DNA of 64,000 nucleotides from an uncultured Pirellulales bacterium (GCA_964520535.1 CAZFOQ010000002.1:32990-96989), one strand, 5' to 3'; numbered from the stretch's first letter, positions 10,504 through 64,000 are shown. Numbers and translations are program-made. The notes: a model not told the origin generated them from the letters alone.

Positions 10504-12062
10504 ATCAATTCATGTCCTTCGAGTGTATATGCTGCTGTTGTGAGTAATTCAATCGCCGAATTAAACTCCTTGTTTTCACGCTTGAGTTTCGCTTCCAATA
10601 AAAGAGTATCCACCGTTGGCCGCTGCTGATTAATCTCGTGGCATATTCTATCCGCTGTGCTGTGGTCTCCGGCTTCGAAAAAGGCCTTTGCCGCTAATTT
10701 TTTCATCCACAATATGTTTTGATGTTGGTCGGCAATATATTCATACATTTCTGCCGCCTGCAACCAGTCTCCCTCACTCTCAATCGATAGGGCCTGATGA
10801 TATAAATTATCGAACTGGAAAGGCAGCTCTTCATTACTCGGATGTCTAAGAGTAATGCCAGAGGCCTTTAAGGATTCCAAAACAGATAAATCGGGAAAGC
10901 TTTTCCGGGCAAATTGTAAATCTTCTCTTCTAACTACTGCTGCCCGGAGCTTATCTTTTGCTTGTTCCAATAAAAATCCCTGCCGGTCATTGGTACAATT
11001 TATCAGAGCGTAGAGCGGACTCTCTATCCACATATCCTTTATGGGTAAGCCACTTGGTACTATTGCTATATATTCGCCCTCGCATCTTTCGAGAGCTCTG
11101 TCCAATTGCAGTTTAATAGAAGAAATGTTAGTGACAGGCACAAAAACCAAATTAGGCATGTCGGTATTTAGCCTGTTGAAATCAGATTCTGATATTGGAA
11201 GATAAAGCTTATAGGGATAGAAGGTATGCTGCCAGATGGAACCGATTGTTTTTCCTGCACGTTTGTCTAATCTGTCCGTAACAAAAATGATAGACAAATC
11301 CCCAATCTTTGGCCAGGGTTTGGCCGGTCTTGAGGTCCTTATCGTCAAAACGTTTTTCAGGTATTCGTTCTTATCCTTGCGTCGCTGAACAGATATTCTG
11401 TCACATTCACCCATCGGATGGGAATATTCCCCGGTTACTTTATGAACATGGTAAAAATCGGAAAAGAAGACCGATCGACGTGTCAAATCCCAATCAATTA
11501 AAACATTGAGCCGCTCATTATAAGGACCTGTTTTTTCAATCAGGTCCCGGCGATGCATCAGACTGACGTGAAGAACATGGTTGAAATTCAGCATCAAAAA
11601 GCGATCAAAGCCACGACTAACCTCCACAACTTTACTGAGAACCTGTCGGCTGCCATCCGGAAAGACTTTGCAATATACCTTGTACAAATCACTATATGCG
11701 ACCTGACAGTGAGTCTCATTTTCCAAAGCGTCAACTAAAGTTTCGATGTGAAACGGATAGTAGAGATCATCATCGTCAAGGTAAGCAATATATTTACCTT
11801 CGGCTCGATTCAATGCTTCGTTCAGCGAATAAGCTTTGCCGCGATTTTCTTTTCTGTCGATATATTTAAGCCTGGCATCGTTAAACGAATCGATTATGCC
11901 ACTTACATCTTCTCCGCCATCATTGATTACGATAATCTGAAGGTTTCCGTAACTCTGGGATAGAACGCTGGCAAGGGCTTCATATAGATATTGGGGCCGG
12001 TTAAAAGTTGGAATAAGAACACTAACGACCGGCCCACTTTTTTTCTCGTAATTTTCTAACAT
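10494..12062 (-). CDS. glycosyltransferase family 2 (N-terminus) fused to C-terminal TPR repeats
   Basis: 522 aa. VVSVLIPTFNRPQYL...IIVINDGGED is a GT2 motif. The C-terminus has TPR-like repeats (AAKAFFEAGDHSTADRICHEINQ...). Confidence 0.75.
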   Translation of the reverse strand: MLENYEKKSGPVVSVLIPTFNRPQYLYEALASVLSQSYGNLQIIVINDGGEDVSGIIDSFNDARLKYIDRKENRGKAYSLNEALNRAEGKYIAYLDDDDLYYPFHIETLVDALENETHCQVAYSDLYKVYCKVFPDGSRQVLSKVVEVSRGFDRFLMLNFNHVLHVSLMHRRDLIEKTGPYNERLNVLIDWDLTRRSVFFSDFYHVHKVTGEYSHPMGECDRISVQRRKDKNEYLKNVLTIRTSRPAKPWPKIGDLSIIFVTDRLDKRAGKTIGSIWQHTFYPYKLYLPISESDFNRLNTDMPNLVFVPVTNISSIKLQLDRALERCEGEYIAIVPSGLPIKDMWIESPLYALINCTNDRQGFLLEQAKDKLRAAVVRREDLQFARKSFPDLSVLESLKASGITLRHPSNEELPFQFDNLYHQALSIESEGDWLQAAEMYEYIADQHQNILWMKKLAAKAFFEAGDHSTADRICHEINQQRPTVDTLLLEAKLKRENKEFNSAIELLTTAAYTLEGHELIWT

Positions 12063-12083
12063 TACAGGAGTATTTGATAATCC

Positions 12084-13604
12084 TTAATCTGCGGTTAATT
12101 CTACCTTTTCAGGTTCCCGGTTCTGTGAGTTGTTGCCTGGCATGGTCGACTTATGTTCCGAATCTATCTTATTTTCGAGTTGAATCAGAATATTATTGAC
12201 GTTGGTCAATTGTTTCATAAGTGGATAGTTTTCTTCGACAAACCTGCGATACTTTTGAGGTTCGTATGATGCCGAGAGAACATGCTCACAGAATTCTTCT
12301 GAGATGTTAAACAGAAAATCAGACGGGAAGATTTTATCCGCGCCAGGAAAGTTATGGATAACTGGTTTCAAGCCGCAGGCCATTGCTTCAAGCAGTCCCA
12401 TTCCCTGACTTTCTATGGTACTTGTCGAGACGATATAATGCTTGTCCTCAAGCCATGAGCAGACATCTTTCTGCCAGTTATCGAAGAACACCACATCCCG
12501 TAAATTAAGAGCATCAACCATATGTTTCATATATTGCTCAAGAGCCATGTCCTGAAATTGACCGGCGAAAAACAAACGATACTCGGGATCAAAATAGTGC
12601 AGTTTCTGCATACACTGCAAAACCATTGCAGGATTCTTGACTGCTCGGATATTACCCACAACGGCAATATTTTTGCCCTGTTGTCGTTCAGTAAATGTAA
12701 ATTTCTGCAGATCGACTCCATTTGGAATCGTGACAATTGAGGTTTGATGTTCGATATCCGGGACATGTCGAACAAGGACATCCCTGACAAAACTATTGCC
12801 CACTGTTATCAGTGTATCAATATTCTGCCAGTTGATTTGCTGTGTCCATGGACCATAGGCTTCATAGCGATGCAGTCTAACAATATTTTCACAGACCTTT
12901 GTCTGCCGGGAACCTATCACGGCCAGATCAGTACACCACTCAAACCAGGAGATATCGCTCCATTGCATGAGTTCATACAATTGTTCTTCTGTTTTTCCTT
13001 CAAAAAGACGTACCTCAAAGCGCTCTTGTACAAATTCATAGATATCTTTCAAAAAGGTCATCCCATCGCCACCACAAAAGAACGCCACCTTCGGTCTTTT
13101 CGAACGAATCACCTGAACCATTGGTGAGAGAATATTCTGTTCGGGGCATATTTCCAAGGAGCGAATAAGCATTTCAATGGCACCAGCTTTGTTCCCCTGA
13201 TTTAAAAATACATTGGCGGTTCTGTTTAATAAATCCACATTAAGTATATCCATCTTCTCCATATCATCAAAAAGCTGTACAGCTTCACATACCCTGCCAG
13301 TGGAAAGATATGCCTCCACTAAATTCCAAATTATTTCAGCGGAGTTGCTCTGCAGGCTTCGAGCTTTTATAAAATGTGTAATAGCCTCGTCAGAGCGGCC
13401 AAGGCAATGGAGAATTGCTCCCGTATCATTCAGCACCTGTGCATTTTCGCCGGTGCTGTGAAGATGCTCCTGCATACAGGCAAGTGCCTCCTGATAATCG
13501 CCGGCCTGGGCGAATTCCAAACCTCTCTCATAACCATTCATGTTTTCGAACGCACCATCTCGCTTTTGCCCACCCTGCGGATTCATATTTGTTTCGAGAG
13601 TCAT
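12084..13604 (-). CDS. N-terminal TPR repeats fused to a C-terminal GT-B (GT1/GT4 family) glycosyltransferase; O-GlcNAc-transferase-like architecture
   Basis: 506 aa. N-terminal TPRs (GDYQEALACMQEHL..., SDEAITHFIKARSLQSNSAEIIWNLVEAYLSTGR). C-terminal GT4 motif ESQGMGLLEAMACGLKPVIHNFPG. Confidence 0.75.
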   Translation of the reverse strand: MTLETNMNPQGGQKRDGAFENMNGYERGLEFAQAGDYQEALACMQEHLHSTGENAQVLNDTGAILHCLGRSDEAITHFIKARSLQSNSAEIIWNLVEAYLSTGRVCEAVQLFDDMEKMDILNVDLLNRTANVFLNQGNKAGAIEMLIRSLEICPEQNILSPMVQVIRSKRPKVAFFCGGDGMTFLKDIYEFVQERFEVRLFEGKTEEQLYELMQWSDISWFEWCTDLAVIGSRQTKVCENIVRLHRYEAYGPWTQQINWQNIDTLITVGNSFVRDVLVRHVPDIEHQTSIVTIPNGVDLQKFTFTERQQGKNIAVVGNIRAVKNPAMVLQCMQKLHYFDPEYRLFFAGQFQDMALEQYMKHMVDALNLRDVVFFDNWQKDVCSWLEDKHYIVSTSTIESQGMGLLEAMACGLKPVIHNFPGADKIFPSDFLFNISEEFCEHVLSASYEPQKYRRFVEENYPLMKQLTNVNNILIQLENKIDSEHKSTMPGNNSQNREPEKVELTAD

Positions 13605-15041: not shown

Positions 15042-17006
15042 TCATAACAGTTCCATAATAGTTGACAATGACGTTTGAACTGTGTTCAGATATTTTGCCA
15101 TAGCTTTGAACATTTGTTCGAAGACCAACATTTGAGCAGCTTCATCGTTGATGTCAACGCCGCTTATCTCGCTCTGTTGATTGGCAAGATTTTGGACTAT
15201 AGCTTCAATGTTATCCTGGTGTATCTGCCTGACGGAAAGATCCAGTCCGATGTCCGTAACAAGCCGACGATAAAATTCTCCTGGTGTCATAGAATCCAAA
15301 CCTGTTATGGCCTCGTCCCTCAAACCGACCAAACGCAAGGCATTGGTGTTGTCTGTCATATCTGCACCCAGGGCTGTTGCTATACGTCCCGGCGTATCAG
15401 ATATATCTGAACAAACTGCTATATCCGAAGCATTTTTGCCGGAAAAAAAAGTGTTGATTCCTACTGCCGCCAGCACTCCCGAGCTATCTGTATCGGCAAA
15501 AGCATCAACTTCAAAAGCATTACCATCTGCCAGATCACCAATACCGAGAGTTATTTTGATTCCGTTTCCGGCATCAAGAACATCACCCGCGGCATAACCG
15601 GAACCGACATTGAGCGTAGTCACTGTATTGGCGGCACCGTCAGTAACAGTAATTTGCAATGTACCATTTCCCACTGAGCCGGTCCCTGATACTGTAAAAG
15701 TGAAAGTCTGGTTTTCCGTGCCTGAATAAATACCAGATACCGATATAGCCGGCGGTGATGTCGCCCCGGTAAAGTCACTATTGGTTGGTAAAGGAAGAAC
15801 ACTGGGCAGGAAATCGAAATTATAGCCTGTATCAGCCTGGATACGAAGTTTCGAATCAGACACCGAAGCAGACAAACCTGTTATCGCTGTAATGGCGGTG
15901 GCTAAAGACGACAAGGAATCTGCCGAAGCATCGACCGGTACGGCGGTTCGTGTTACAGCCCCGGAACTGGTATTTATCACCCTTATATAGATATTACCGT
16001 CTGTCACGGGTGGATCAAAATCAGACAAATTCTCACTCACCAACGGCCAGCCGGACAGTTCCGAAAATGAACCCTCCGATCCTGCTCCCTGGACGTGGTA
16101 CTTATTTATCTGCTGGATTATAGCGCCTGCCAGAGTGTTCAGGTCGTTGTGAATATCCGAGATAATAGTGTTCTTTAACGACAATAATCCCCCGAGCCGT
16201 CCGCCCTGTATATCTGTGTAATAGTTACATTCGCCGGCCACGGTAATCCCCAGTCCGAGGTATTCTTCAAAACCAACTTCCAGTTCAACTGCAGAAGTAC
16301 CTGTTAAAACAGGTATGCCGGCAATACTCACATCGACAACACCATATTCTCGTGATTGGGTCTGGACACTAACCAGTTTTGAAAGCTCTGTTATACACTG
16401 GTCTCTTTGGTCCCGCAGATTATTGGCCTGGCCACCACCGATTTCCTGTCTTTCAATATTTGCATTGAGCTGAGCTATTGTGCCAACCAGAGCATTAATC
16501 CGTTGGATTGTGTCCTCAGCTTCTAATGTAATTTGATTTTCCAAGATTGCCAGAAATTCTTCTAACGATCTAAAACGACTGGCCATCGTCTCTGCGGCTG
16601 TCACCGCTTGATTTTGCCAAACAATCTGGGCCGGATGTGCGGAAAGGTCCTGCAATGCGTTAAAAAATCCGTCTATAGCTTCATTCAAACCACTCCCTGC
16701 CGAAAGCTCTCCAAATGCGGTTTCGACTGTCCGCAGCATTCCGACTTCCTGTGATATCTGACCCAATGAAGACTGCTGACGGAAAATCTCATTCTCCAAA
16801 AGCACGTCAATCATCCTGGTAACTCCGGCAACTTCTACACCCCCTCCCATAATCATTGCATCAACCTGCGATGAATAGGCAGGAAGCAGGTCGAGTCTCT
16901 GACGGTGGTAGCTATCAGTCGCTGCATTGGCAATATTATTGCCAATAATCTCAAAAGCACTCTGTGCTGCGTTAAGGCCACTAATTCCTATATCAAAACT
17001 ATCCAC
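15042..17006 (-). CDS. flgK: flagellar hook-associated protein 1 FlgK
   Basis: 654 aa. N-terminus MDSFDIGISGLNAAQSAFEIIGNNIANAATDSYHRQ. C-terminal rod/hook-family helix ...VFEQMFKAMAKYLNTVQTSLSTIMELL. Confidence 0.85.
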   Translation of the reverse strand: MDSFDIGISGLNAAQSAFEIIGNNIANAATDSYHRQRLDLLPAYSSQVDAMIMGGGVEVAGVTRMIDVLLENEIFRQQSSLGQISQEVGMLRTVETAFGELSAGSGLNEAIDGFFNALQDLSAHPAQIVWQNQAVTAAETMASRFRSLEEFLAILENQITLEAEDTIQRINALVGTIAQLNANIERQEIGGGQANNLRDQRDQCITELSKLVSVQTQSREYGVVDVSIAGIPVLTGTSAVELEVGFEEYLGLGITVAGECNYYTDIQGGRLGGLLSLKNTIISDIHNDLNTLAGAIIQQINKYHVQGAGSEGSFSELSGWPLVSENLSDFDPPVTDGNIYIRVINTSSGAVTRTAVPVDASADSLSSLATAITAITGLSASVSDSKLRIQADTGYNFDFLPSVLPLPTNSDFTGATSPPAISVSGIYSGTENQTFTFTVSGTGSVGNGTLQITVTDGAANTVTTLNVGSGYAAGDVLDAGNGIKITLGIGDLADGNAFEVDAFADTDSSGVLAAVGINTFFSGKNASDIAVCSDISDTPGRIATALGADMTDNTNALRLVGLRDEAITGLDSMTPGEFYRRLVTDIGLDLSVRQIHQDNIEAIVQNLANQQSEISGVDINDEAAQMLVFEQMFKAMAKYLNTVQTSLSTIMELL

Positions 17007-17039
17007 TTACGAACTCCGTTTTATGCCGGATGGTGTCTC

Positions 17040-17561
17040 TTAAAACTGCAAATTAACAAAAGCCATTTCACTCTGCTGTCTGGTTGTGCCATCGGCGCTG
17101 TAGTAAAGTGCCCCCGACTTACCAAGGTCGAAGATACTTTTTAGAAGCAAGCTGTTGAATCTAGCGCATTCGGATAAAAGTACTGCCGTGCTTGAATACT
17201 CTTTCTTAAGGTCTTCAATCAACACTCTTAACTTTGCTTTACTCTGGGTGATACGATCTTTTTTAGCTTCAGGGATAGACTTCTCAAGCTTCGATAAAGT
17301 CATGTTTTTTACGCTACAGCCAAAATATTTCGCTAACTCTGATCGTACTAACTGTCGGTTCGATTCATGTTTTCTAAAATTATCCGTCTCGGCCTGGATG
17401 TTTTCAAGCAATCTACCTAAAGCGGCATCGTCACGCTTGATAACCAAACTTCGCAGCTCATCCAGATTCGACAGGCTCTTTTGAATATGCTCTATGTCTT
17501 TTTCCAGACACACCAGCAGTTCATCAATTTTATCTTCTATTTCAATTGCAACCGTTTTCAT
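17040..17561 (-). CDS. flgN: flagellar export chaperone FlgN-like protein
   Basis: 173 aa helical protein directly upstream of flgK, the conserved flgN position. Contains the helical EDKIDELLVCLEKDIEHIQKSLSNLDEL region. Confidence 0.5.
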   Translation of the reverse strand: MKTVAIEIEDKIDELLVCLEKDIEHIQKSLSNLDELRSLVIKRDDAALGRLLENIQAETDNFRKHESNRQLVRSELAKYFGCSVKNMTLSKLEKSIPEAKKDRITQSKAKLRVLIEDLKKEYSSTAVLLSECARFNSLLLKSIFDLGKSGALYYSADGTTRQQSEMAFVNLQF

Positions 17562-17911
17562 AAATGCCTATCTATTGAATTTCCCGCCTGATTTACATGG
17601 TCGGTACTTGTTAAGGTTTGATATATATCCTTCCAGAGTCCGAAGCCGCCGTTATTCGCAATGTCACGGGCAAGGTATAACCAAAATATCCCCTGAACCT
17701 GCATGGAAGTGCCATCTTTTTCAAAGCCCCAGTTACCGATCGTATTTTTCATTTCGTCCAGCAATTTATTTATCAGGAGCGACTCGAAATCCTTTGCGAT
17801 TTGTTTTTTCTTTTCCTCCGATATTCCATCCAGATTCAATTTTTCGAGCTGCCCGATGGGCACCGGCGGTGAGACTTGTTCGTTCAATATCAACTTGGCG
17901 CTATCCATCAT
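17558..17911 (-). CDS. flgJ: rod-binding protein (stand-alone FlgJ N-terminal domain)
   Basis: 117 aa. AKDFESLLINKLLDEMKNT...GFGLWKDIY resembles the Rod_binding domain (FEAxFLxxMLKSMR ... GLGLAEM). Lies between flgI and flgN with 4-bp overlaps. Confidence 0.55.
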   Translation of the reverse strand: MMDSAKLILNEQVSPPVPIGQLEKLNLDGISEEKKKQIAKDFESLLINKLLDEMKNTIGNWGFEKDGTSMQVQGIFWLYLARDIANNGGFGLWKDIYQTLTSTDHVNQAGNSIDRHL

Positions 17912-17918
17912 ACTGTTC

Positions 17919-19067
17919 CTACATTATCACCAGCCTGGCCTGGAGGGCACCGGCCTGTTTTAGGGCATTAAATATAGCTATCATATCGCTCGGTGTTGCG
18001 CCAATCCCGTTGAGGCTCTTGGCTAATTCAGAAACCGTAACGGATCGGGACACAGGAATCAGGTACGCTTGCTGCTCTTCGATCCCGATTGTCGTCTCCG
18101 GAATTCTTTCGGTCGTACCGGAATTAGAGAAAGGAGCGATCGGCTGGGAGACACGCTCGGTCTCAGTGATTTTCACAACGAGGCTGCCCTGCGAAATCGC
18201 CACGGCAGATATGCCAACGTTCTCACCAACTACAATAGTACCGGTACGCTCGTTGATTACCACTACGGCAGGAACATCAACCTTGACTTCGAGCTTTGTA
18301 ATATCTGCGATAAAGCCAGCTATCTTTTCACCACTAATTTCGCCGGGAACTTTTACTTTGATGGTGCCGGCATCAGCTACTACAGTACTGTCCGGAAAAT
18401 CCTGGTTGATAACTTTACTAATTTGCTCCGCAGTTGAAAAATCGCTGTTTCTTAGATTCAGCGTGACAACTCGATCGCCAGCAATATTTTCAACAAATTT
18501 CGCAATCTCCTCCTTTTCAACAATAGCACCATTGGGGATTCGGCCCACCGTCTGGTGGTTCTTTGTAACCGATGCCTTATCGCCTGAAGCCGTCCAGCCG
18601 CCTATTGAAACACCACCTTCAGCCACTGCATAAACCTGGTCGTCAAGGCCTTTTAGAGGTGTTGGCAGGAGCTTACCGCCCTGGAGGCTTTTGGCTTCTC
18701 CCACAGCCGAAACATCAACATCAAATCGTGAACCCTCACGAGCGAAGGGTCCCAACTCTGCTGTTACCATCACCACAGCGATATTACCGCCGGACAAGTC
18801 AGAAGGATTGAGAACCAAACCCGAATCTCTCAATATATTCGTTAACATTTGCCGTGACAGCAGTGAAGTATCGCCGCTATTGGCCAGACCAACAACCAGA
18901 CCAATACCTCTGAGCGGATTGCCGCGAAGTCCCTGAATATCAACAATATCTTTTATGCGCTCGCACTTTCCAGTGTTAGCCATAAAGGTACACACGACAA
19001 GTGCACAAATCATCAGTACCATTAAGTGTTTTTGCTTTTTTGCTTGCTTTCTCTTTGCCGGTTTCAT
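17919..19067 (-). CDS. flgI: flagellar P-ring protein FlgI
   Basis: ERIKDIVDIQGLRGNPLRGIGLVVGLANSGDTS is the FlgI signature, preceded by a signal peptide. The track start at 19073 is a TTG; the ATG at 19067 (MKPAK...) is more likely. Confidence 0.85.
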   Translation of the reverse strand: MKPAKRKQAKKQKHLMVLMICALVVCTFMANTGKCERIKDIVDIQGLRGNPLRGIGLVVGLANSGDTSLLSRQMLTNILRDSGLVLNPSDLSGGNIAVVMVTAELGPFAREGSRFDVDVSAVGEAKSLQGGKLLPTPLKGLDDQVYAVAEGGVSIGGWTASGDKASVTKNHQTVGRIPNGAIVEKEEIAKFVENIAGDRVVTLNLRNSDFSTAEQISKVINQDFPDSTVVADAGTIKVKVPGEISGEKIAGFIADITKLEVKVDVPAVVVINERTGTIVVGENVGISAVAISQGSLVVKITETERVSQPIAPFSNSGTTERIPETTIGIEEQQAYLIPVSRSVTVSELAKSLNGIGATPSDMIAIFNALKQAGALQARLVIM

Positions 19068-46562: not shown

Positions 46563-46588
46563 TTGACTTGTATGTTTTGGGGTATAAT
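46563..46588 (+). promoter_or_regulatory. consensus-hexamer sigma70-like promoter (TTGACT ... TATAAT) with a short 14-nt spacer, upstream of the radical SAM gene
   Basis: TTGACT at 46563-46568 and TATAAT at 46583-46588. The spacer is suboptimal at 14 nt. Confidence 0.3.
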
Positions 46589-46637
46589 GTTGTCGAACAA
46601 GGTAAAAAGTATTCTGTGGCCGAAAGGACTCTTTCCT

Positions 46638-47729
46638 ATGGGCACAGCAAAAACATTCAGGCCGCGAACCATTATGCTCTCGCAAAAAGTGGCCGAGCTT
46701 CCGGAGGCTCAGCGAATTCTGGATTTGTTTCCATGTGCGGACGTCCGGGTGATTGAGCAACAGCGAAAGCCTTCACTGCCGGATATGTCACCATCTCAAT
46801 CGCTGCTTGCAAGCAAAAGAACTTTGATGATAGGCCGAACCACTTCTTTCGTAGGCCGCTTCGATGGTCAGCTCGGCGAAAATATCCGATGCTGTCCTTA
46901 CTATAAACTGGTTCCGATCTCGAACGGCTGCCCTTACTATTGTACGTATTGTTACCTGGCATATGTTTATCGCAAGCATGCTCCATTCATCAAAATAAAC
47001 ATCAACTACGATGCGATGTTCCGGCAGATCCGCAGGACTACGGACGGTGCCGACGGTAAGGTAAGCTTCAATATGGGAGAGATGCTGGACAGCCTCGCTC
47101 TCGATCACATCACAAATCTGACACCAAAGCTGATCCCGTTCTTTTCCAAATTCTCCAACGCCTATCTCATGCTGCTGACCAAAAGCAGCAATATCAACAA
47201 CCTGCTGCAAGTTGAGCCGAACGGGCAAATCGTCTTGTCCTGGAGTCTGAACAGCCTTCAGGCGATTCGCCAATATGAATTAGGTACTGCCGACCTTGAC
47301 GACCGTATCGAGGCAGCCAGACGTTGCCGGGAGCATGGCTATCGAATCCGATTTCGCATCGACCCGGGCATTCTCCATGACAACTGGCAAGCCGGCTATG
47401 CTGATTTAATCCGGAAGTCACTCACTGCCGTAAAGCCGGAAAATATCACGCTCGGAATGTTGAGATTGCTGCCCGGGCATTTCCAACTGGCCGAAGGCGC
47501 GTATGGCGATCGTGCACATCAGCTTTGCAATCGCAGCTTCGTCAAAGGTGCTTCTGACCGCAAGCTTCGTTATCCGCCAAAAGAACGGGCGGAATTCTAC
47601 AGCTTCCTGATCGATAAAATTCGCAGCTTCGATAAGGATGTCTCTATCAGCCTTTGCAGAGAAACGCCGGAGATTTGGGACATCTTCAAAAACCGCTGCG
47701 ATCCGGCCAAATGCAACTGCGTGATATAG
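46638..47729 (+). CDS. radical SAM protein of the spore-photoproduct-lyase-like (DNA repair photolyase) family
   Basis: NGCPYYCTYCYL (CxxxCxxC). The C-terminal half resembles SPL-family elements (RIRFRIDP, MLRLLPGH). The start at 46638 (MGTAKTF...) is chosen because the track start at 46563 lies inside the promoter hexamers; the start is uncertain. Confidence 0.65.
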   Translation: MGTAKTFRPRTIMLSQKVAELPEAQRILDLFPCADVRVIEQQRKPSLPDMSPSQSLLASKRTLMIGRTTSFVGRFDGQLGENIRCCPYYKLVPISNGCPYYCTYCYLAYVYRKHAPFIKININYDAMFRQIRRTTDGADGKVSFNMGEMLDSLALDHITNLTPKLIPFFSKFSNAYLMLLTKSSNINNLLQVEPNGQIVLSWSLNSLQAIRQYELGTADLDDRIEAARRCREHGYRIRFRIDPGILHDNWQAGYADLIRKSLTAVKPENITLGMLRLLPGHFQLAEGAYGDRAHQLCNRSFVKGASDRKLRYPPKERAEFYSFLIDKIRSFDKDVSISLCRETPEIWDIFKNRCDPAKCNCVI

Positions 47730-52202: not shown

Positions 52203-52347
52203 TACTCGCTCCTTATTTGTTTTTGTATCTTATTAATCCAGGCTCAGGACCAAATCACCTGCCGCAAATTTTACGATGTCTCCACTGCCGATGGATTTTG
52301 ACGGACTTAGTTCGCCGCAAGCCAGCATATTTCCACCTGCGACGGCA

Positions 52348-52623
52348 TCAAACAAAATAAGTCATTGTCCCCCAATTGCCGGTCGCCATTGGAAAGATTA
52401 TCTCATTGGCATTATCTAATGAACCGCTTAAAGCGGCATTCCAATCACCGGCGGAAGTTTGTACTCGTGCATATGCATTTCCGCTCGGCTCGGCCAGAGA
52501 CAAACCATCATCGGCCGGATCTCCTATGGATAATCCCACGTAAATCGTCGGAGGCGTTAATGTGGCTTTGCTAAAAAGATAGTCTATGATTCTATCTTCC
52601 CAATAATCTGAAAAACTTCCCAT
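52348..52623 (-). CDS. hypothetical protein (91 aa), phage-like module
   Basis: ORF in the cluster. Confidence 0.35.
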   Translation of the reverse strand: MGSFSDYWEDRIIDYLFSKATLTPPTIYVGLSIGDPADDGLSLAEPSGNAYARVQTSAGDWNAALSGSLDNANEIIFPMATGNWGTMTYFV

Positions 52624-55826: not shown

Positions 55827-55874
55827 GTTATTCTGAGCGGAACGCTCTTTACATTGTCATTCTGAGCGGAACGC
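55827..55874. repeat. two 19-bp direct repeats (GTYATTCTGAGCGGAACGC) in the spacer downstream of the capsid-like gene
   Basis: 55827-55845 gttattctgagcggaacgc and 55856-55874 gtcattctgagcggaacgc. They share the core TGTCATYCTGAGC with the tandem repeat at the window end. Confidence 0.5.
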
Positions 55875-55976
55875 AGTGGAGTCGAAGAATCTGGCCTGGT
55901 GGTTTAATATCATTCTCGAAATTAACTTTGCAATCATCGGCCAGATCCTTCGTTATCGCTCAGGATGACAAGCCCT

Positions 55977-57131
55977 TTAACTTGTGCTCAAGTCGCGAAT
56001 CAGGCCGTGGGCCGCTTCATTTTTCAGCTCGACGGTATATTCGCCGATTAGTTCACCGCACTCATAATCTCCACTGCTGGCCAGAGGTTTGAAATGGAAA
56101 CTCCGCCCGGCCAACGGCAGAACGTTGATGCGGGATGAATCCAGCAACAGCACCGCATCGGCTGGCAGCCATCGGGTCGTAATAATCCGGCACACACCGA
56201 AGTCACTCTCATAAATGCTGATCATATCGGTGAAAGTCGTATCGTTGGCGCCGAAGCTCCTGCTGTTGGCGGAAAAGGCGTTGATCTTTCGTTTCTGAAA
56301 ACCGCCGACCACAATCAGGTCCACATTACCACTGCTGTTGTTCCAGATTTGTCGAAGTACATAATTAATTTTGTCTTCATCAAGATCTGTGCCGGATGGA
56401 AAGCCGCTGTCACCGGTGTGGAAGACATTCATCGAGAAGTGCTGAATAATTCCCTTCATCGACCTTCGTACCGAGCCGCTGCCCTCGGGATTACTGGCCG
56501 GCTGGCCGCCGTTGATAACTGTATTTTCCAAATCGCGAATCATCTCTCGCAACCGTTCCTGCTTTTGAAAATCCAGCTCGTCGGCCAATCCCAACTGACT
56601 TGCCGCCATATCTGTGCCGCTAACCTCGACAGTCGCAGTAAATATCTGTGTGTAGTTGCCGCACCGGCTGCGGTTGGTGAACCGAGCACTGGGTTTGTCC
56701 GCCCCTTCGAGAGCCGCGTTTCCGAGAATATTGATGACCTGGTCATCGGCCAGGTCCTCGGCGGTTGTACCGGCATAGCCGCGGACAACCGTCAATGTAT
56801 TGCTGTTGATTGCCGTGACGAGCATTAATTCCTCACTACCAGCGATCTGAATCTGGTCGCCAATGCGAAATCGGCTTCCGTTATCGACAACAAAATCCGT
56901 GTCAGTGCTCGGATCAGTATACGTGCTGTCATTGACCGCGTCTTTGTTCGGCAGAAGTTCATCTTCGAGCCACTCGTGATGCGTGCTTCGGGCCTCCCGC
57001 ATCGGGTCACCCAGAGCATCCAGCAAAGGAGTCTCATAAGGCGTAATAAGCCCGATGATATCCGATACATCCTCAGCCAGCTCCGGCAGAGTCGTCCCTG
57101 CTGTATATGTCGCTTTTCCTGTAAATGCCAT
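55977..57131 (-). CDS. phage major-capsid-protein-like protein (384 aa)
   Basis: Its size, its position after a coiled-coil scaffold-like gene and a portal-like gene, and the 178-bp spacer with repeats downstream (typical of highly expressed capsid genes) support the call. No definitive motif. Confidence 0.4.
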   Translation of the reverse strand: MAFTGKATYTAGTTLPELAEDVSDIIGLITPYETPLLDALGDPMREARSTHHEWLEDELLPNKDAVNDSTYTDPSTDTDFVVDNGSRFRIGDQIQIAGSEELMLVTAINSNTLTVVRGYAGTTAEDLADDQVINILGNAALEGADKPSARFTNRSRCGNYTQIFTATVEVSGTDMAASQLGLADELDFQKQERLREMIRDLENTVINGGQPASNPEGSGSVRRSMKGIIQHFSMNVFHTGDSGFPSGTDLDEDKINYVLRQIWNNSSGNVDLIVVGGFQKRKINAFSANSRSFGANDTTFTDMISIYESDFGVCRIITTRWLPADAVLLLDSSRINVLPLAGRSFHFKPLASSGDYECGELIGEYTVELKNEAAHGLIRDLSTS

Positions 57132-57199: not shown

Positions 57200-57715
57200 T
57201 CATAAATAGTTTCTTCGCAGTTTCAGATACTCATGCAAATCTGTTCGATTTCCTGTTGTCGCCGCTTTTTTTGCCGCCCTTTCGAGGATGGTATGAACGT
57301 TAGTTGAACGCTCCTTAGCTCCGGCGGTCTTTGTCGCCGTCACGAGCTCATCGGTTGGACTGAATAGATATTGCTTTTCCTTCTTTAACTGCTCAATTAC
57401 AGCATCCGGATCCGCTTCTTTGTTACCCTGCAACCTGGCTTTGGCAAGCAGCACTGCCGATTCAATATCAACCGCTCCGGCAGAAATTAATTTATGCATC
57501 AACGTTTGCTCGGCTTGGATGTCACTCAATTGCTCAGAGAGTTTTACTGTATTCTCCTGTGCCTGGGCCAATTGCTCGGTCAGGGATTCAACTTTTTTCT
57601 CGGCACTCTGTGCTCTTTTACGATAGCGGATCGATTCGGCCACCGGGACCAACTTCACGCTGTCGGCTTCTGATGTTTCGACGATGTCGTCTGACAAAAC
57701 TTCCTGTGTCTCCAT
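57200..57715 (-). CDS. phage scaffolding-like protein (171 aa, acidic coiled-coil)
   Basis: Highly charged helical sequence (ESLTEQLAQAQENTVKLSEQLSDIQAEQTLM...) between the portal-like and capsid-like genes. Confidence 0.4.
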   Translation of the reverse strand: METQEVLSDDIVETSEADSVKLVPVAESIRYRKRAQSAEKKVESLTEQLAQAQENTVKLSEQLSDIQAEQTLMHKLISAGAVDIESAVLLAKARLQGNKEADPDAVIEQLKKEKQYLFSPTDELVTATKTAGAKERSTNVHTILERAAKKAATTGNRTDLHEYLKLRRNYL

Positions 57716-57760: not shown

Positions 57761-59293
57761 TCATTGTTCGTATCCTAATTCTCTGAGCACCTGCTCAGTT
57801 GACACTCCTAAATCTTTTTTCATCTGTGCTTCTTTGAGCTTTTCGGCCATGTTCTCCGGCAGCGGGCTGGGAAATATAATATCGACCTCTCTGTCCGTGG
57901 TGCCGGTCTTATATATGTCGGCGGTATCGAGCATTCTTAAAACCATCCGGCAAATTTGTTTTACCCCCTCGCTGTAAGTAAATCTCTTACGTTCGTTCTT
58001 TGAGAGCATCCCCATCAAGGTCAGTCTCAAGGCCACCGCACTTGTCAAATTGCCGAGCTTGTTCTTCAAAACCCCCGCCACCAATGGTGTCACCGAGCTG
58101 ACCTTGTCCATCGCCTCTCTGATTTCTGCTATGTGCAAAGCTTCGCTGGGAGTCGCTGCGTCTCCGCCGAACTCCTCGATAGAAGCCTCCGGATTATCGG
58201 TGTACCACATTCGACCGGGCGAAACAGGTTTGTCCTCAAAGCCCTCGATTCCTTTGCCCAGATACATTTTAAACGACTGGAACGTGATTCTGCTGGCCCT
58301 GTCGCTTAATCGTGTATTGAGTTCGTCCTGCAACGGGATTAACGGCTCAACGTTACTGTGACCCTCATAGAAATAGGGCTGTGCGATGTTCTGAATATGC
58401 ACGACCGGCAGAAATTCCCATGGCAAGATGCCCTCGGCCACAAGCTCCTTGTCTTCATATCTTTGCCAGGCATTTGCCGAAGTGATTTCGGTTACGGCGA
58501 CAATCTGCCGACTGTCACCGCTGCGCCGGCCGCCGGATAAAATCCGTGAAAGAAACGAGCTTTTTCTGGCGAGGGCATTTTTCTTCTGATAGAAATGCTG
58601 CACATAATACCGGATCTCTTTGTAATCGTTTTCATCCAGAACCGGCAGTGCTCTTGGCGCTTCAATCAGTTCCAGTCCGATTGTTTGTACCAGTCGTTGT
58701 GCTTCTTCGAGAGATCCCGTTGTCCGGGAATCCTGTGAGTGGTTTTGGAAGGAGGAGGAAGTGACTCGTTCGATGATCTCATCGCCAGGCCTGACGAAGC
58801 AATCGACGAAACCGTAAACACTTCCGAGCACTGCCATATCCTGGAGAAATCCGATAGCACCATTAGCCGAAAAGAGTGCCTTTATAATCGACTCAATTTC
58901 TGCACGTTTCAGGTCGTCCGGTGATTTGGAAGTAAAACTAATGGATTTGCCGAACAAAAAATCCACGGCGGCATTAATCCGCCATGCAATATCATTTTCG
59001 ATCACAACTTCTTTTCTCTGTATATCTCTCAATACCCTTGTACCGGGTAAACCAGAACGGCCGGAGTGGACGTAACCGGTTATTCTTGCCGGCAGGCCAA
59101 ATTCCTGTGCCTGTATGGATCTCTTTGATGATTCTGCCAGCCTGCTGTCAGAAATTTCGATCTTTGGATTTGCATAATAATTCCAAAGCAGCTCAAAGTG
59201 AGCTTGAATATCGACCCAGCGTGTATCGATGAGCCAGTCAATGTAATCTGCCTCAAGCCCGGTGTCCTGGAATATGTCAGTTTCAAATGCCAT
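57761..59293 (-). CDS. phage portal-like protein (510 aa)
   Basis: First gene of the module. Its size and position upstream of the scaffold and capsid genes fit a portal. It has no Walker A, so it is not a terminase. Confidence 0.4.
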   Translation of the reverse strand: MAFETDIFQDTGLEADYIDWLIDTRWVDIQAHFELLWNYYANPKIEISDSRLAESSKRSIQAQEFGLPARITGYVHSGRSGLPGTRVLRDIQRKEVVIENDIAWRINAAVDFLFGKSISFTSKSPDDLKRAEIESIIKALFSANGAIGFLQDMAVLGSVYGFVDCFVRPGDEIIERVTSSSFQNHSQDSRTTGSLEEAQRLVQTIGLELIEAPRALPVLDENDYKEIRYYVQHFYQKKNALARKSSFLSRILSGGRRSGDSRQIVAVTEITSANAWQRYEDKELVAEGILPWEFLPVVHIQNIAQPYFYEGHSNVEPLIPLQDELNTRLSDRASRITFQSFKMYLGKGIEGFEDKPVSPGRMWYTDNPEASIEEFGGDAATPSEALHIAEIREAMDKVSSVTPLVAGVLKNKLGNLTSAVALRLTLMGMLSKNERKRFTYSEGVKQICRMVLRMLDTADIYKTGTTDREVDIIFPSPLPENMAEKLKEAQMKKDLGVSTEQVLRELGYEQ

Positions 59294-59993: not shown

Positions 59994-60956
59994 TTATTCC
60001 ATGTCTTCTTTCTGAAGGAGCTGGATAATATCCGCCTTTGTCGGCATCGATTCGATTGAGCCGAACTTCGTGCACGCCAATGCTCCTGCCGCCGATGCGA
60101 ACTTGACCGCTCCTCTAACATCGTCCTCGACAGCACAGTATGCTGCCAAAGCTCCTGTAAATGCATCCCCTCTGCCGGTCTGATCGACCAACTCAACTTC
60201 GAAAGCTGGAATCTGGTCGGCACCGTCTCTGTCAACAACCATACACCCGCGTTTGCCCATCGTTATTACTGCGTATTTAACGCCGCGAGCAACCAGGTCG
60301 GAACCGATAAGCTTTGCCTGGCGGAATCCTACCGCAGAATGATCGGTAATATCGGCAGCCTCGTCAAGATTCGGAATAATAATATCAACGGAAAAATACT
60401 CAATAGGAAGGTCGCTGCTTTCCTGACCCTTTTGTTCTATTGGCCTTGCGGGATTGAGAATAACCTTGGTTCCATGTACTTTTGCACATCGAACGGCAGC
60501 TACGATTGCATCCTGTGGCAGACCGCCATGAATTAAACACACATCCGCTTCGGATATAATCTGTTCGGCAGATTCTATATCGCGGATTCCCAAAGCAATG
60601 TTCGCTCCGGCATAATAGCAATCTGCATTTTCTCCCTCGGCATTGACCAGCGTTACAACCATGCCTGTATTTTTAGTTTCAGCCGTATGAACATTATCTG
60701 TATTGACTTTGTATTCTGCCAAACTCGTCTTTGCCATTTGCCCGAATGGGTCGCCGCCAATTTTGCTTACCAAATGAACTTCGCATCCACATAATGCAGC
60801 TTCGACCGCTTGATTTGGCCCGGGACCGATAGCCGCATATGATAGAGAATTGCCGATAACGCTCTGACCTGGTGTTGGGATTTGGCTGCAACGTATCGCC
60901 ATATCCACGTATGTGCCGCCGATTACAACGACCTTCGGAATCCTTCCCGAGACCAT
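59994..60956 (-). CDS. PfkB-family carbohydrate kinase (ribokinase-like)
   Basis: 320 aa. VVVIGGTYVDM (N-terminal GG motif) and C-terminal DTTGAGD-like motif VDQTGRGDAFTGALAA. Confidence 0.8.
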   Translation of the reverse strand: MVSGRIPKVVVIGGTYVDMAIRCSQIPTPGQSVIGNSLSYAAIGPGPNQAVEAALCGCEVHLVSKIGGDPFGQMAKTSLAEYKVNTDNVHTAETKNTGMVVTLVNAEGENADCYYAGANIALGIRDIESAEQIISEADVCLIHGGLPQDAIVAAVRCAKVHGTKVILNPARPIEQKGQESSDLPIEYFSVDIIIPNLDEAADITDHSAVGFRQAKLIGSDLVARGVKYAVITMGKRGCMVVDRDGADQIPAFEVELVDQTGRGDAFTGALAAYCAVEDDVRGAVKFASAAGALACTKFGSIESMPTKADIIQLLQKEDME

Positions 60957-61370
60957 ATTCTCAGCCCTTTTTTTATATGTCCTTTAACTTTTTTTTCGAT
61001 CCAGCAGCTTCTAAGAAAAAGCCCCTTCCAATGCTTGCTCAGGGAAAAAGATACTTTTCAACAGCTCATTATAGCCATTAATCCAGCTTTTTCAATATTT
61101 CTTTTGAATAATATGGTCTTAAAGTTCTAACAAAAGTAAAAATCTTTCAAACAAAATATCTTTACAACTAAAAAATATCCTCTATCTCTGCCTGCCAATT
61201 TTGCCCCCTTATAGCGGCAAAAATTGCATTTTTGATACTTTGTTATTTCAAAAACTACATAAAATAACAGATTTTTTGTAAAAAATTATAAAAAACACTT
61301 GACAGAGTTTACAAAAAAGCAAATACTATGTCAATGTTTGGTATATACACAATTAACTTATTGATATATA

Positions 61371-61787
61371 ATGAAAAGACTAAACAGCAATATACCACAA
61401 GAAAGACTCCAATCAAAGAATCATCATCGCGAAGATATAGATTTATTACGTTGCAGGATAAGCCTGCTTGATGGAAAAGATAAGCTATTGATGTCAATGT
61501 ACTTAGACAATGGCAACAGCTTTCGACAAATATCCAAGCTACTCGGAGTCTGTCAGCCGACAATAAGTCGCAGAATTCACAGATTAACAAACCATCTAAC
61601 AGGGCAGCCCTTCCAGATATACCGGCGATACAGGAAAAAATTTAATGAAGGGCAGAAAGACTTTGCACGGGACTACTTCCTAATGGGCCTGTCGATGCGG
61701 CAAATCGCCGCGAAACGCCGGTGCAGCTATTATCGAGTCCGAAATATTTTGGAAGAAATACAAAAAATTATAAATATTAATAAATAA
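61371..61787 (+). CDS. small regulator with two sigma70-region-4/LuxR-like HTH motifs
   Basis: 138 aa. FRQISKLLGVCQPTISRRIHRL and LSMRQIAAKRRCSYYRVRNIL resemble sigma-70 r4 HTHs. It follows a 300-bp AT-rich promoter-like region. Confidence 0.5.
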   Translation: MKRLNSNIPQERLQSKNHHREDIDLLRCRISLLDGKDKLLMSMYLDNGNSFRQISKLLGVCQPTISRRIHRLTNHLTGQPFQIYRRYRKKFNEGQKDFARDYFLMGLSMRQIAAKRRCSYYRVRNILEEIQKIININK

Positions 61788-61848
61788 TCACATCTTTTTT
61801 AGCCCCCATTTTAATGGGGCAATGGAACGAACAGATTTAAGGTAAATC

Positions 61849-62538
61849 ATGGCGACATACAGCATTTCAAAAAGCTTTACCTGGCAGGGAACAATAACAG
61901 ACAAAGTCGCATCTGTCTGCAGGATGTTCGGTCTCACTGCCGCGAGACTCAAAGAACAACGCCGATGTCATAGCTGCCAATTGGAAATCAACTCCGGCGA
62001 TATAGTTTATATCACAGGACCATCGGGCGCAGGCAAAAGCGTGCTTATGGGCGAGCTGGAAAAAGCCGTCCAGGCAGCGGACAGTGTGAACCTCACAAAT
62101 ATAGAACTTCCCAGTGACAAAACCGTCATCGATTGTATCGATGCAGGTCTTCTGGCCGGCCTGCGACTTCTCAGCACAGCCGGGCTGAATGATTGTTTTT
62201 GTATCCTGAATCAGCCGAGCAATCTCAGCGAAGGGGAAAAATACCGATTCCGCCTGGCGATGGCAATGGCGGCGAAGAAAAAATTTGTCTTTGCGGATGA
62301 ATTCTGCTCCGAGCTGGACCGGATTACTGCTGCATCTGTTTCGCACCAGCTCCGCAAATTCGCCGATAAAACAGGCACCACATTTATTCTGGCCTCAAGT
62401 CACGAAGATACCCTGCTCGATCTGGCACCGGATGTCCTGGTCAGCAAAGATTTAAGCGGCTCGACAAGGGTTGTCTATAAGGAAAGAGCCCGCAGTGCAA
62501 GTTCGCAAAATGAGAACCCGGCTTTAGGGAGAAGATGA
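61849..62538 (+). CDS. minimal stand-alone ABC-type ATPase (Walker A GPSGAGKS, signature-like LSEGEKYRF, Walker B VFADEF, H-loop SSHED)
   Basis: 229 aa. The order and spacing of the motifs match an ABC nucleotide-binding domain. No transmembrane or partner domain. Confidence 0.65.
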   Translation: MATYSISKSFTWQGTITDKVASVCRMFGLTAARLKEQRRCHSCQLEINSGDIVYITGPSGAGKSVLMGELEKAVQAADSVNLTNIELPSDKTVIDCIDAGLLAGLRLLSTAGLNDCFCILNQPSNLSEGEKYRFRLAMAMAAKKKFVFADEFCSELDRITAASVSHQLRKFADKTGTTFILASSHEDTLLDLAPDVLVSKDLSGSTRVVYKERARSASSQNENPALGRR

Positions 62539-63272
62539 TGCAACGCTGCACCTTATGCAGAAAAGTTCAGATTGTCCCCGGCACTTACGCTGATTATAAA
62601 CAGCTCGCTCAATATCATTATCGTGACAACGGCCCGGGACAATTCACATCGATTTATGCCCTCAGGCCAGCTCCAAATTCCGGCCGGCATCAGCAGACCG
62701 TAGGGGTAATCGTCTATTCGACGCCGAATCCCGGGCTGGAGCTACGCAACATTGCGACGAAGAATTTCTTCATCGGCTTCGATCAAAGCACGCAACTGGC
62801 ACTTCTGAACAAGAACATCCGCAGGATCAGCAGGGTCATTATCGAGCCACGATTCCGCCGCCTTGGTCTGGCTGCCCGGCTGGTCCGCGAGACGATGCCG
62901 ATGATGAATTTCCCGATCATCGAGGCAGTTGCGGTGATGGGTGTTGTCAATCCATTTTTTGAAAAAGCGGGAATGAAGGCCTACACAGCACCGGAAAAGG
63001 ATCGTAACATCCGGCTGACAGAGGCCCTCAGTGCCGTCGGGATAGAAAACAACCTGCTCATCGATCCTGAGACAGTGCAGCAGAAAATCGATCATCTCGC
63101 CGGTGAGAAGGCTGAATTTATCGAGCTTGAAATGAGGCGCTTTCTGCAAAGCTACGGCGATCGCCGTTACGGACGTCACTCACTGAAGCGGACAAGATTC
63201 GTCCTGAATAAGCTCACGATAAGGCCCGTTTATTACATATGGTTTAATCCAAATTTAGGGCATAGGATTTAG
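62535..63272 (+). CDS. hypothetical protein with a possible GNAT-like acetyltransferase core (RVIIEPRFRRLGLAARLV)
   Basis: 245 aa. Start overlaps the ATPase stop (ATGA). Motif-A-like segment; the assignment is weak. Confidence 0.4.
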   Translation: MMQRCTLCRKVQIVPGTYADYKQLAQYHYRDNGPGQFTSIYALRPAPNSGRHQQTVGVIVYSTPNPGLELRNIATKNFFIGFDQSTQLALLNKNIRRISRVIIEPRFRRLGLAARLVRETMPMMNFPIIEAVAVMGVVNPFFEKAGMKAYTAPEKDRNIRLTEALSAVGIENNLLIDPETVQQKIDHLAGEKAEFIELEMRRFLQSYGDRRYGRHSLKRTRFVLNKLTIRPVYYIWFNPNLGHRI

Positions 63273-63293
63273 GACATAGGGTACAGATATATA

Positions 63294-64000
63294 ATGGCAA
63301 ATCAAATACAAACAATTGAAATCGACAGGCTCATCGCTCATCCCGATAATCCGAACCGGATGAGTAAAGACAGATTCGCCAAGCTGGTTCGAAACATTGA
63401 GCGGACCGGCCGATATGAACCAATCGTCGTGAGGCCAAAAGGGTTTGCATTTGAGATAATCAACGGCCATCATCGTGTGAAGGCACTCCAACAGCTCGGA
63501 CACAAAACCGCCGATGTTGTTGTCTGGGAAGTGGACGACCACGAGGCCGACATTCTGCTGGCTACGCTGAATCGGCTTGCCGGCTCGGACGTGCTTGAGA
63601 AGAAACTGGCATTACTCAAGCGGCTCAACGAACAAACAAAGGCACGCGAGCTGGCCAGACTTCTGCCGCATAACGCAAAACAGATCGAACGCCTGACCAA
63701 TTTGAAATTGCCCACTGCCCCGGCGGAAATAGATGCAAACTGCTTTGCGATTCCGCTGATGTTTTTTGTCAACAACGAGCAGCACAAAATCATCCGGCAT
63801 GCTTTGTCACTTGTTCAAAGCACTCGAAAAGAAACTACCAAAGCTAAAAGAAACGCAGCAGCCCTGACACGCATCGCCAGGAGCTATATCGATATGAATA
63901 AAAACCTCAGATTAAGTTATTCCTGTCATCCTGAGCTTAATTCACCCTGTCATCCTGAGCTTAATTCACCCTGTCATCCTGAGCTTAATTCACCCTGTCA
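63294..64000 (+). CDS. ParB/Srx-type nuclease-domain protein, 5' portion (runs off window end), with C-terminal in-frame tandem CHPELNSP repeats
   Basis: Manual translation from the ATG at 63294 gives MANQIQTIEIDRLIAHPDNPNRMS...IVVRPKGFAFEIINGHHRVKALQQLG, the ParB N-terminal domain. It is not in the ORF track because there is no stop in the window. Confidence 0.65.
   Translation, partial: MANQIQTIEIDRLIAHPDNPNRMSKDRFAKLVRNIERTGRYEPIVVRPKGFAFEIINGHHRVKALQQLGHKTADVVVWEVDDHEADILLATLNRLAGSDVLEKKLALLKRLNEQTKARELARLLPHNAKQIERLTNLKLPTAPAEIDANCFAIPLMFFVNNEQHKIIRHALSLVQSTRKETTKAKRNAAALTRIARSYIDMNKNLRLSYSCHPELNSPCHPELNSPCHPELNSPC
63922..64000. repeat. 24-bp tandem repeat (CCTGTCATCCTGAGCTTAATTCAC) x at least 3.3, truncated by the window end; in frame within the ParB-like CDS
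   Basis: Perfect copies start at 63922, 63946 and 63970, with a partial copy from 63994. The repeat encodes the repeated octapeptide CHPELNSP. Confidence 0.85.

Follow-up and report, generated by a model that had tools for sequence, protein, structure and literature searches.

Close to the end of a 64,000-nt stretch of DNA from an uncultured Pirellulales bacterium (GCA_964520535.1 CAZFOQ010000002.1:32990-96989; the whole stretch is hereafter called the window) lies a compact cassette of four genes, encoding a small protein with helix-turn-helix (HTH) units, an ATP-binding cassette (ABC) ATPase, a GNAT-like protein and a ParB-domain protein. The four genes appear to be the front half of a phage-type packaging operon that has become fixed and is vertically inherited in the chromosomes of Phycisphaerae, a reading to which we give slightly better than even odds (a probability of roughly 0.55). 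The evidence includes the terminase genes found next to the cassette in related genomes and phages, and the conservation of the locus across Phycisphaerae.

Terminase genes beside the cassette in relatives and phages

The original prediction, made from the sequence of the window, placed the cassette beside a ‘terminase-less’ phage-like structural module and suggested a non-canonical packaging or partition system. No terminase is present within the 64-kb window, which reflects where the window and its contig end; small and large terminases follow the cassette in relatives, and their absence here is a window-edge effect. Queries with phage large terminases matched Phycisphaerae loci 3' of the cassette and on the same strand. 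One of these loci (L002) encodes, directly after ParB, a 143-aa protein (11399-11830) of the small terminase family phrog_2538 (E = 3e-10), and further downstream a 498-aa protein (16778-18274) of the large terminase family phrog_2 (E = 1e-19), in which Walker A (RAGGKT), Walker B (CDEVE) and the nuclease aspartates are all present. Small terminases were found in 63 of 96 related sequences and large terminases in 36 of 96, always downstream and on the same strand, and the two are adjacent in nine loci (including L043, L052, L059, L072, L082, L083 and L095).

Among the loci from GTDB genomes, the small terminase starts less than 100 nt from the ParB match in 23 of 54 cases and less than 1 kb from it in 46 of 54. 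The large terminase is found within ~1 kb in 9 of 27, the others having 1.7-7.9 kb of inserted genes, and sulfatase and oxidoreductase genes are located between the small and large terminases of related loci. The terminase positions in relatives thus give HTH, ABC, GNAT, ParB, small terminase, large terminase as the ancestral arrangement of the operon. ParB is followed in the lineage of the window by DUF1376, HNH-AP2 and beta-helix genes, which would have been inserted at this position, with the terminases lying past the contig end; in the closest relative with enough sequence (L022, 75% identical) the small terminase is located 8.4 kb downstream.

The same association is found in phages. A tblastn search of GenBank phages recovered the ABC and GNAT genes in SSU5-type phage-plasmids, in Pseudomonas (nickie) and Rhizobium phages, and in other phages. 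Salmonella phage SSU5, nickie and Rhizobium phage RHph_N1_15 have the gene order ParB, (ParB), ABC, small gene(s), GNAT, small gene, followed in nickie and RHph_N1_15 by a DNA-binding gene, the large terminase and the portal; the SSU5 record stops just after the cassette. Genes 1-4 of Gordonia phage BiggityBass encode ParB, an ABC+GNAT fusion (with a QGAGIG motif), a formyltransferase-like protein and a terminase. The third of these genes (L018 1823-2473) is annotated as ‘tRNA-methyltransferase’ and matches Formyl_trans_N (E = 7e-10), which is a hint that the module of that phage may modify a small molecule or a nucleotide.

The proteins of the window resemble these phage ABC-acetyltransferase proteins (SSU5 gp127 and gp129, nickie gp157 and gp155, BiggityBass gp2) in the ATPase (35-39% identity, E = 1e-31 to 1e-35), in the GNAT part (25-27% identity, E ~1e-8), where the C-terminal motif P-[VL]-Y-x-[IV]-[WY]-x-N-P is common to both, and in a neighbourhood with ParB and large terminase. 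They differ in that ABC and GNAT are here encoded by separate, coupled genes, that ParB comes after rather than before them, that a two-HTH leader is present, and that the locus is chromosomal and clade-wide instead of viral.

In IMG/VR, 77 loci encode a relative of the GNAT protein at 26-41% identity and none above 41%, and the chromosomal (Phycisphaerae) version is on no IMG/VR contig. The ABC gene lies directly upstream of GNAT in 73 of these 77 loci (checked with Pfam), mostly in one open reading frame (ORF) of 480-500 aa, and an ABC+GNAT fusion was found in 7/7 long representatives tested. A large terminase (Terminase_6N/6C) adjoins ABC-GNAT in 45 of the 77 loci, immediately upstream in 40 of them and immediately downstream in the other 5, as well as in four groups of annotated phages; the association is seen with either gene order, and the phages concerned have hosts from four phyla. 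GNAT is rarely fused to a small terminase or to ParB (P0130, P0268), and ParB, ABC and GNAT are contained in one stop-free ORF in two loci (L163 8771-10726, L164 6978-9008); these rare cases could be Rosetta-stone fusions or assembly frame errors. Phage records label the genes ‘ABC transporter’, ‘ABC-type ATPase fused to a predicted acyltransferase domain’ or ‘ParB-like nuclease/partition protein’, and two records (H7, H21) carry an MK0520-like label. With ABC and GNAT-like parts encoded by overlapping genes here and fused forms elsewhere, the ABC-GNAT pair of the window belongs to this fused ABC ATPase-acetyltransferase family (MK0520-like in phage records).

A terminase role of the cassette itself was rejected in each of the forms considered. 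Relatives possess a canonical large terminase with intact Walker A/B motifs and nuclease aspartates, so the cassette does not replace a missing one. The cassette proteins are not terminases themselves, as the ATPase matches terminase families at chance level only (phrog_800 with E = 0.0057 and phrog_2666 with E = 0.028) and the true small and large terminases are separate downstream genes in relatives. Nor do ABC and GNAT represent a split large terminase, since a true large terminase is encoded downstream and GNAT lacks an RNase H-like fold. Of the suggested link to packaging or partition, the packaging part is supported, with terminases directly downstream in many relatives and ABC-GNAT beside the large terminase in phages; replacement of a missing terminase and partition are not. 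As seen in relatives and phages, and not in the window's own genome, the cassette has the features of accessory genes of a phage-type packaging operon, and we consider it highly probable that it is an accessory part of such an operon.

Conservation and inheritance in Phycisphaerae

Homologues of the GNAT-like protein number 1550, share 62-81% identity with it and come without exception from Planctomycetota/Phycisphaerae metagenome bins, and a profile search returned 1502 representatives at the 50% cluster level. With one genome per GTDB species, 452 genomes contain a GNAT relative; they are mostly labelled Phycisphaerae/Sedimentisphaerales, many bear the submitter label ‘uncultured Pirellulales’, and all genomes found are metagenome-assembled. 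Synteny was counted in the 80 best loci, using loci with enough flank as denominators. ParB is directly downstream of GNAT in 72/72 loci, the ABC gene is upstream of GNAT in 69/74, and the HTH gene is upstream of the ABC gene in 61/70. A PfkB kinase gene is located upstream, between portal and cassette, in 41/62 loci, and a portal gene is found at most 10 kb 5' of the cassette in 21/43. The same synteny is seen in ten loci that were retrieved through exact protein matches. The cassette genes thus co-occur across genomes, a point that the original prediction had left to gene-neighbourhood analysis.

Median identity to the window protein is 85% for the capsid, 74% for PfkB, 72% for the portal, 68% for ABC, 61% for GNAT, 56% for ParB and 46% for the HTH protein, placing the capsid above the metabolic enzyme PfkB. 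Divergence correlates with that of PfkB for ABC (Spearman 0.82), portal (0.84) and capsid (0.69), but not for ParB (-0.08).

The structural module occupies ~42-59 kb of the window on the minus strand and comprises an SPP1-type portal (57761-59293, PF05133), a scaffold-like protein (57200-57715; a weak match to PF06810, syntenic in relatives with a median identity of 63%), an SU10-type major capsid protein (55977-57131, PF17236; its counterparts in related loci are 81-93% identical), a Gp80-like gene and numerous genes without annotation. Ten proteins of the module received nearly no annotation from PHROGs, and no tail, lysis or regulatory gene was recognised among them. The capsid has 4685 homologues; identity is 88-100% in the top 120 clusters, whose members are from Planctomycetota/Phycisphaerae and with few exceptions measure exactly 384 aa. 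Host-like genes are found inside or beside the module, namely a spore-photoproduct-lyase-like radical SAM gene (46563-47729, plus strand) and pfkB (59994-60956, minus strand). The remaining window is chromosomal, with flagellar, purine and glycosyltransferase genes, and no integrase, repressor or lysis family was matched among the called genes of the window.

The whole is probably a vertically inherited, domesticated element similar to gene transfer agents (GTAs), because host-like genes are interspersed, the capsid is conserved, divergence tracks that of PfkB, the chromosomal version is absent from IMG/VR, and no genes for autonomy were identified. The locus has several traits in common with RcGTA and with the GTAs of Bartonella and Brachyspira: phage-like genes for head and packaging are chromosomal and mixed with host genes, purifying selection on the capsid is strong, neither an integrase nor a lysis module is in view, and a small putative DNA-binding activator encoded nearby is comparable to GafA. 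The present locus differs in its SU10-type capsid, its SPP1-type portal and its host phylum, and it is known from genes alone. No GTA is known to carry an ABC-GNAT-ParB module, and in our searches none described from Planctomycetota came up.

An ordinary, still-mobile prophage family, common in Phycisphaerae and using these genes for its own packaging, would account for the fact that the identifiable neighbours are all phage-like (portal, scaffold, SU10 capsid, terminases, the primosomal-like DUF1376 protein and HNH-AP2) and that the ABC-GNAT core is otherwise known from phages only. This explanation is unlikely, however, as host-like genes occupy conserved positions in the cluster, with variable host genes between the small and large terminases, and integrase, repressor and lysis families are missing from the called genes. 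A mobile prophage also sits poorly with a capsid that is more conserved than a nearby metabolic gene, with divergence that follows PfkB, and with the absence of the chromosomal version from IMG/VR.

We consider it quite unlikely that ABC-GNAT, with or without ParB, is instead moron cargo at a terminase hotspot, without a part in packaging, and would serve in counter-defence or host takeover by acetylating a host protein or a small molecule. Terminase flanks do often hold methylases and homing endonucleases (an N6_Mtase gene is next to ABC-GNAT in L156), the PHROG category of the ABC and GNAT families is ‘moron, auxiliary metabolic gene and host takeover’, and ParB is missing from most IMG/VR loci. 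On the other hand, the large-terminase association is seen in both gene orders and across host phyla, fusions of GNAT with a small terminase and with ParB exist, and the high conservation (on par with the portal) and fixed synteny over hundreds of species are unlike arms-race cargo.

Several other features of the locus and its relatives were observed. The Gp80-like gene (PF23140, ~52233-52623 on the minus strand; 7604-7994 in L015) was called as two pieces (91 and 40 aa) that overlap, and may contain a programmed frameshift or be disrupted. The primosomal-like DUF1376 gene, often together with an HNH-AP2 endonuclease gene, is located at 11638-13066 of the window's own contig (JGI 3300028837, designated L001, which extends 6.7 kb past the window end) and is also found in L035, L040, L041, L047 and L049-L051. 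It is inserted after ParB in some species and between ABC and GNAT in others, and behaves like a mobile insertion able to break ABC-GNAT coupling. Large beta-helix, laminin-G, PKD and dockerin-like proteins are encoded 3' of the cassette in several lineages (L001 13115-17911, L003 10206-16420, L009 10198-13428), and may be fibres or spikes of the element or unrelated surface proteins. One cassette locus (L029, JAIVYN010000211.1) is labelled Candidatus Aegiribacteria, all others being Planctomycetota; the label is probably due to faulty binning and not to horizontal transfer.

The cassette proteins and the 3' repeat

The ORF list and translations confirmed four genes on the plus strand. They are preceded by an AT-rich intergenic region with a promoter-like site (61100-61370), GC content being 25% over 61100-61399 vs 42-56% nearby. 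A putative promoter, TTGACA-17-AATACT, identified as a consensus match, is present at 61299-61327. The layout given in the original prediction, four co-directional genes behind an AT-rich promoter region, is therefore supported by ORFs, profile matches and base composition alike, and the descriptions of the first three proteins also proved accurate.

The first gene (61371-61787) encodes a 138-aa protein with two sigma-70 region-4-like HTH units. It matches HTH_23 with 32.2 bits (cut-off 24.6) and TIGR02937 (sigma70-ECF region 4) in two stretches with 43.6 bits (cut-off 42.9), and Sigma70_r4 and Phage_antitermQ also match. The second HTH (residues 82-134) matches UPF0122 with 23.2 bits (cut-off 22.7) and has antiterminator-Q-like matches, and the protein further matches PHROG sigma-factor and regulator families. 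We infer from these similarities that it is a transcription regulator of the operon. The possibility that it is a small terminase was rejected: set against the genes of nickie and RHph_N1_15 that encode DNA-binding proteins or putative small terminases, it gave a generic HTH match only. In the 77 viral loci, jackhmmer detected no relative of either the HTH protein or the small terminase of Phycisphaerae.

The second gene (61849-62538) encodes a 229-aa stand-alone ABC ATPase of the transporter nucleotide-binding domain (NBD) type. Walker A (GPSGAGKS), signature (LSEGE), Walker B (FVFADEF), D-loop (SELD) and H-loop (SSHED) occur in this order in the translation, the match to ABC_tran has E = 3e-11, and the protein has the features of the ABC superfamily, including the catalytic Glu. 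The nearest NCBIfam and PDB relatives are the NBDs of DevA, LolD, FtsE, MJ0796 and MetN, and in PHROGs the ATPase belongs to phrog_293 (E = 4e-29). No permease or coiled-coil partner was called within 10 kb of the cassette, and no permease was found among the called genes within 10 kb in 10 related loci. A functional ABC transporter was rejected on the grounds that a permease partner is missing and that scores are far under all transporter equivalog cut-offs.

The third gene (62535-63272) overlaps the ABC stop codon as ATGA (62535-62538) and encodes a 245-aa GNAT-fold acyltransferase-like protein. It scores 22.1 bits, just below the GNAT profile cut-off of 23.6. An AlphaFold model based on 38 homologues (mean pLDDT 66) has GNAT topology over residues ~10-155, followed by a helical C-terminal domain (~156-235), and the acyl-CoA loop motif R-x-x-G-x-A is present as RRLGLA and invariant. 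On the predicted fold and the acyl-CoA pyrophosphate-binding motif, the protein can be placed in the GNAT acyltransferase superfamily. A sequence search against solved structures gave nothing significant, and Foldseek against viral models returned generic GNATs only. The GNAT part matches phrog_886 (GNAT, E = 7e-15), in addition to phrog_293 for the ATPase. Because of the ATGA overlap here and the fused forms elsewhere, the ABC and GNAT genes are regarded as one unit, with GNAT as its second half. Two copies of a 14-bp direct repeat, ATTTAGGACATAGG (92% match), are present at 63253-63280, spanning the GNAT stop codon just 5' of the parB start.

The fourth gene (63294-64000) is cut by the window end and encodes a protein with a ParB/Srx N-domain and a helical, HTH-like region; the complete ORF in the full contig is 282 aa. 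The match to ParB_N (PF02195) is 41.8 bits vs a cut-off of 26.3, and residues 5-142 of the protein, which comprise the N-domain and part of the HTH region, align with the solved structures of ParB, Spo0J and Noc, all of them CTP-binding. It shares with these clamps and with the ParB N-domains of phage methyltransferases (phrog_498, DNA methyltransferase with N-terminal ParB domain, E = 3e-18) the ParB_N domain, the GxxR and N-R positions (the latter as LNR) and a helical DNA-binding region. It differs in having GHHR where ParB, Spo0J and Noc have GERR, and in having no ParA partner and no methyltransferase domain. The domain assignment of the original prediction was thus right, but the accompanying term ‘nuclease’ is not supported: its sources are an old Pfam domain name and phage annotations only, and the nearest solved relatives are CTP-binding proteins.

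At the 3' end of parB, Tandem Repeats Finder detected a perfect 24-bp tandem repeat (63922-64000, plus strand). The window contains 3.3 copies of it and the full contig 4.6, in agreement with the at least three perfect in-frame copies noted previously. The array continues directly into GTCATCCTGAGCGAAGCGAAGGATCTGGCC...CCAGATTCTTCGG...CTCAGAATGACA, and belongs to an element (L001 11481-11600) resembling miniature inverted-repeat transposable elements (MITEs) or repetitive extragenic palindromic (REP) sequences. A second, palindromic copy with inverted repeats is intergenic, between two structural genes (55846-55972). The two copies align at both termini, TGTCATCCTGAGCG...GGATCTGGCC and GGCCAGATTCTTCG...CTCAGAATGACA, translation yields a ‘CHPERSEGS’-type peptide, and the 24-bp unit starts with the left terminus of the element. 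The tandem repeat arose by duplication of the left terminus of this MITE/REP-like element, which is inserted at the parB 3' end. Orthologous ParB proteins are 208-238 aa long, stop near residue 205-215 of this ParB and have no repeat tail; the insertion extends the parB ORF by ~70 codons.

The repeat had been proposed as a phase-variable or contingency region. This was rejected: copy changes cannot shift the frame because the unit is 24 bp, the tail is absent from orthologues, and the copy number is 4.6 in both assemblies compared, the second being independent and from another sample (L178). This comparison, which bears on variation between strains, comprises these two assemblies and one short-read contig that breaks at the repeat; a metagenome-wide exact search for the repeat junction gave no match. 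The repeat is a by-product of MITE-like insertion, without a designed role.

The protein families also bear on two further explanations. An anti-phage or abortive-infection system resembling PARIS, Septu or Dnd-associated modules, with the ABC ATPase as sensor and a ParB-family nuclease as effector, is very improbable; the original prediction had named PARIS, Septu and Dnd/Ssp/Dpd for comparison. PARIS (AriA/AriB), Septu (PtuA/PtuB), Dnd/Ssp and MADS also combine a soluble ABC ATPase with a nucleic-acid-related partner, ParB/Srx domains can be nucleases or NTPases (PMC10853773), and PADLOC gave a partial mad3 match of the ATPase (E = 1.5e-16, profile positions 259-339 of 374, in the signature-to-H-loop region) and a match of ParB to the ParB domain of its type II methyltransferase (MTase_II) model. 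PADLOC nevertheless assembled no system from the four proteins, and the GNAT protein matched no model. The locus contains no TOPRIM or HNH effector, coiled-coil insert or DndACDE, its distribution is clade-wide and syntenic rather than patchy, the operon is common with terminases, and the nearest solved ParBs are partition and Noc proteins. Equally little credence can be given to plasmid or phage-plasmid partition, with the ABC ATPase in place of ParA: SSU5-like phage-plasmids do carry two ParB-like genes beside the ABC gene and NCBIfam ParB/RepB/Noc families match weakly, but the ATPase is an ABC-type NBD and not ParA/Walker-type, no ParA-type ATPase is in the locus (RHph_N1_15 has a separate ParA-like gene), the module is also present in BiggityBass, a Gordonia phage, and in chromosomes of bacteria, its genes being chromosomal or in lytic phages, and all ParB matches are far below partition cut-offs (TIGR00180, 38.1 bits vs 58.45), parS sites not having been searched for.

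Proposed function and significance

Some observations weigh against a vertically inherited packaging operon. The terminases were not recovered for the window's own genome, whose contig ends 6.7 kb past the window. In phages, ParB is not obligate, a ParB-like ORF being present in only 3 of the 77 IMG/VR loci, and terminase-side sites commonly hold unrelated cargo such as methylases, so adjacency alone is no proof of a packaging role. The portal is within 10 kb in only 21 of the 43 loci with enough flank, and PfkB may itself sit in a mobile unit, which weakens the argument for vertical inheritance. The AlphaFold model of the GNAT protein is of only modest confidence. Finally, no experiment or paper bearing on ABC-GNAT-ParB function was found, and the literature search likewise returned no paper on the terminase link or on a GTA-like element in Phycisphaerae/Planctomycetes. 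Two comparative-genomics papers that name ABC ATPases, GNAT and ParB (one of them PMC10853773) concern Dnd and BREX and not this module.

For the packaging operon we tentatively suggest an acyl-transfer model, which we regard as a possibility rather than a probability. The ABC and GNAT proteins would act as one enzyme, in which ATP-driven dimerisation of the ABC protein gates acyl-CoA-dependent acyl transfer by GNAT. The substrate would be handled at packaging, and might be either the DNA itself or a packaging or nucleoid protein. ParB, with a CTP-switch-type N-domain and an HTH region, would mark or hold the DNA for processing, and the two-HTH protein would switch the operon on from the AT-rich promoter.

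Phage Mu Mom, a GNAT-fold DNA modifier, is a precedent for DNA as the substrate, and TmcA/NAT10, in which a P-loop ATPase is combined with a GNAT domain acting on RNA, provides an analogy for ATP-gated acyl transfer. Both comparisons have limits. Mom, which modifies adenine in DNA (PDB 8bv8), has only 10% identity to the GNAT protein, many ordinary GNATs score as well, and it lacks an ABC ATPase or ParB partner. The ATPase of TmcA/NAT10 is a RecD-like helicase domain and not an ABC NBD, and their GNAT part has no sequence kinship to the one described here.

What we rate as new is a phage packaging operon or GTA-like element with an uncharacterised enzymatic accessory module. A broader proposal, in which ABC-GNAT and ParB would form an unrecognised catalytic component of tailed-phage packaging, and the locus would in addition represent a new, independently domesticated GTA family across an order of Planctomycetota, is speculative and in our view rather doubtful. 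The wide mis-annotation of these genes (‘ABC transporter’, ‘ParB-like nuclease’, ‘partition protein’) obscures the link to packaging. If ABC-GNAT works with the terminase, it would represent an unstudied enzymatic packaging step, maybe with a new DNA or protein acylation. Such a step, if true, would be common to SSU5-group phage-plasmids of Enterobacteria and to Pseudomonas, Rhizobium and Gordonia phages, all of which are lab-tractable. The conserved capsid, portal and terminase set with its host-like genes constitutes a candidate Planctomycetota GTA, and would bear on gene flow in abundant sediment bacteria.

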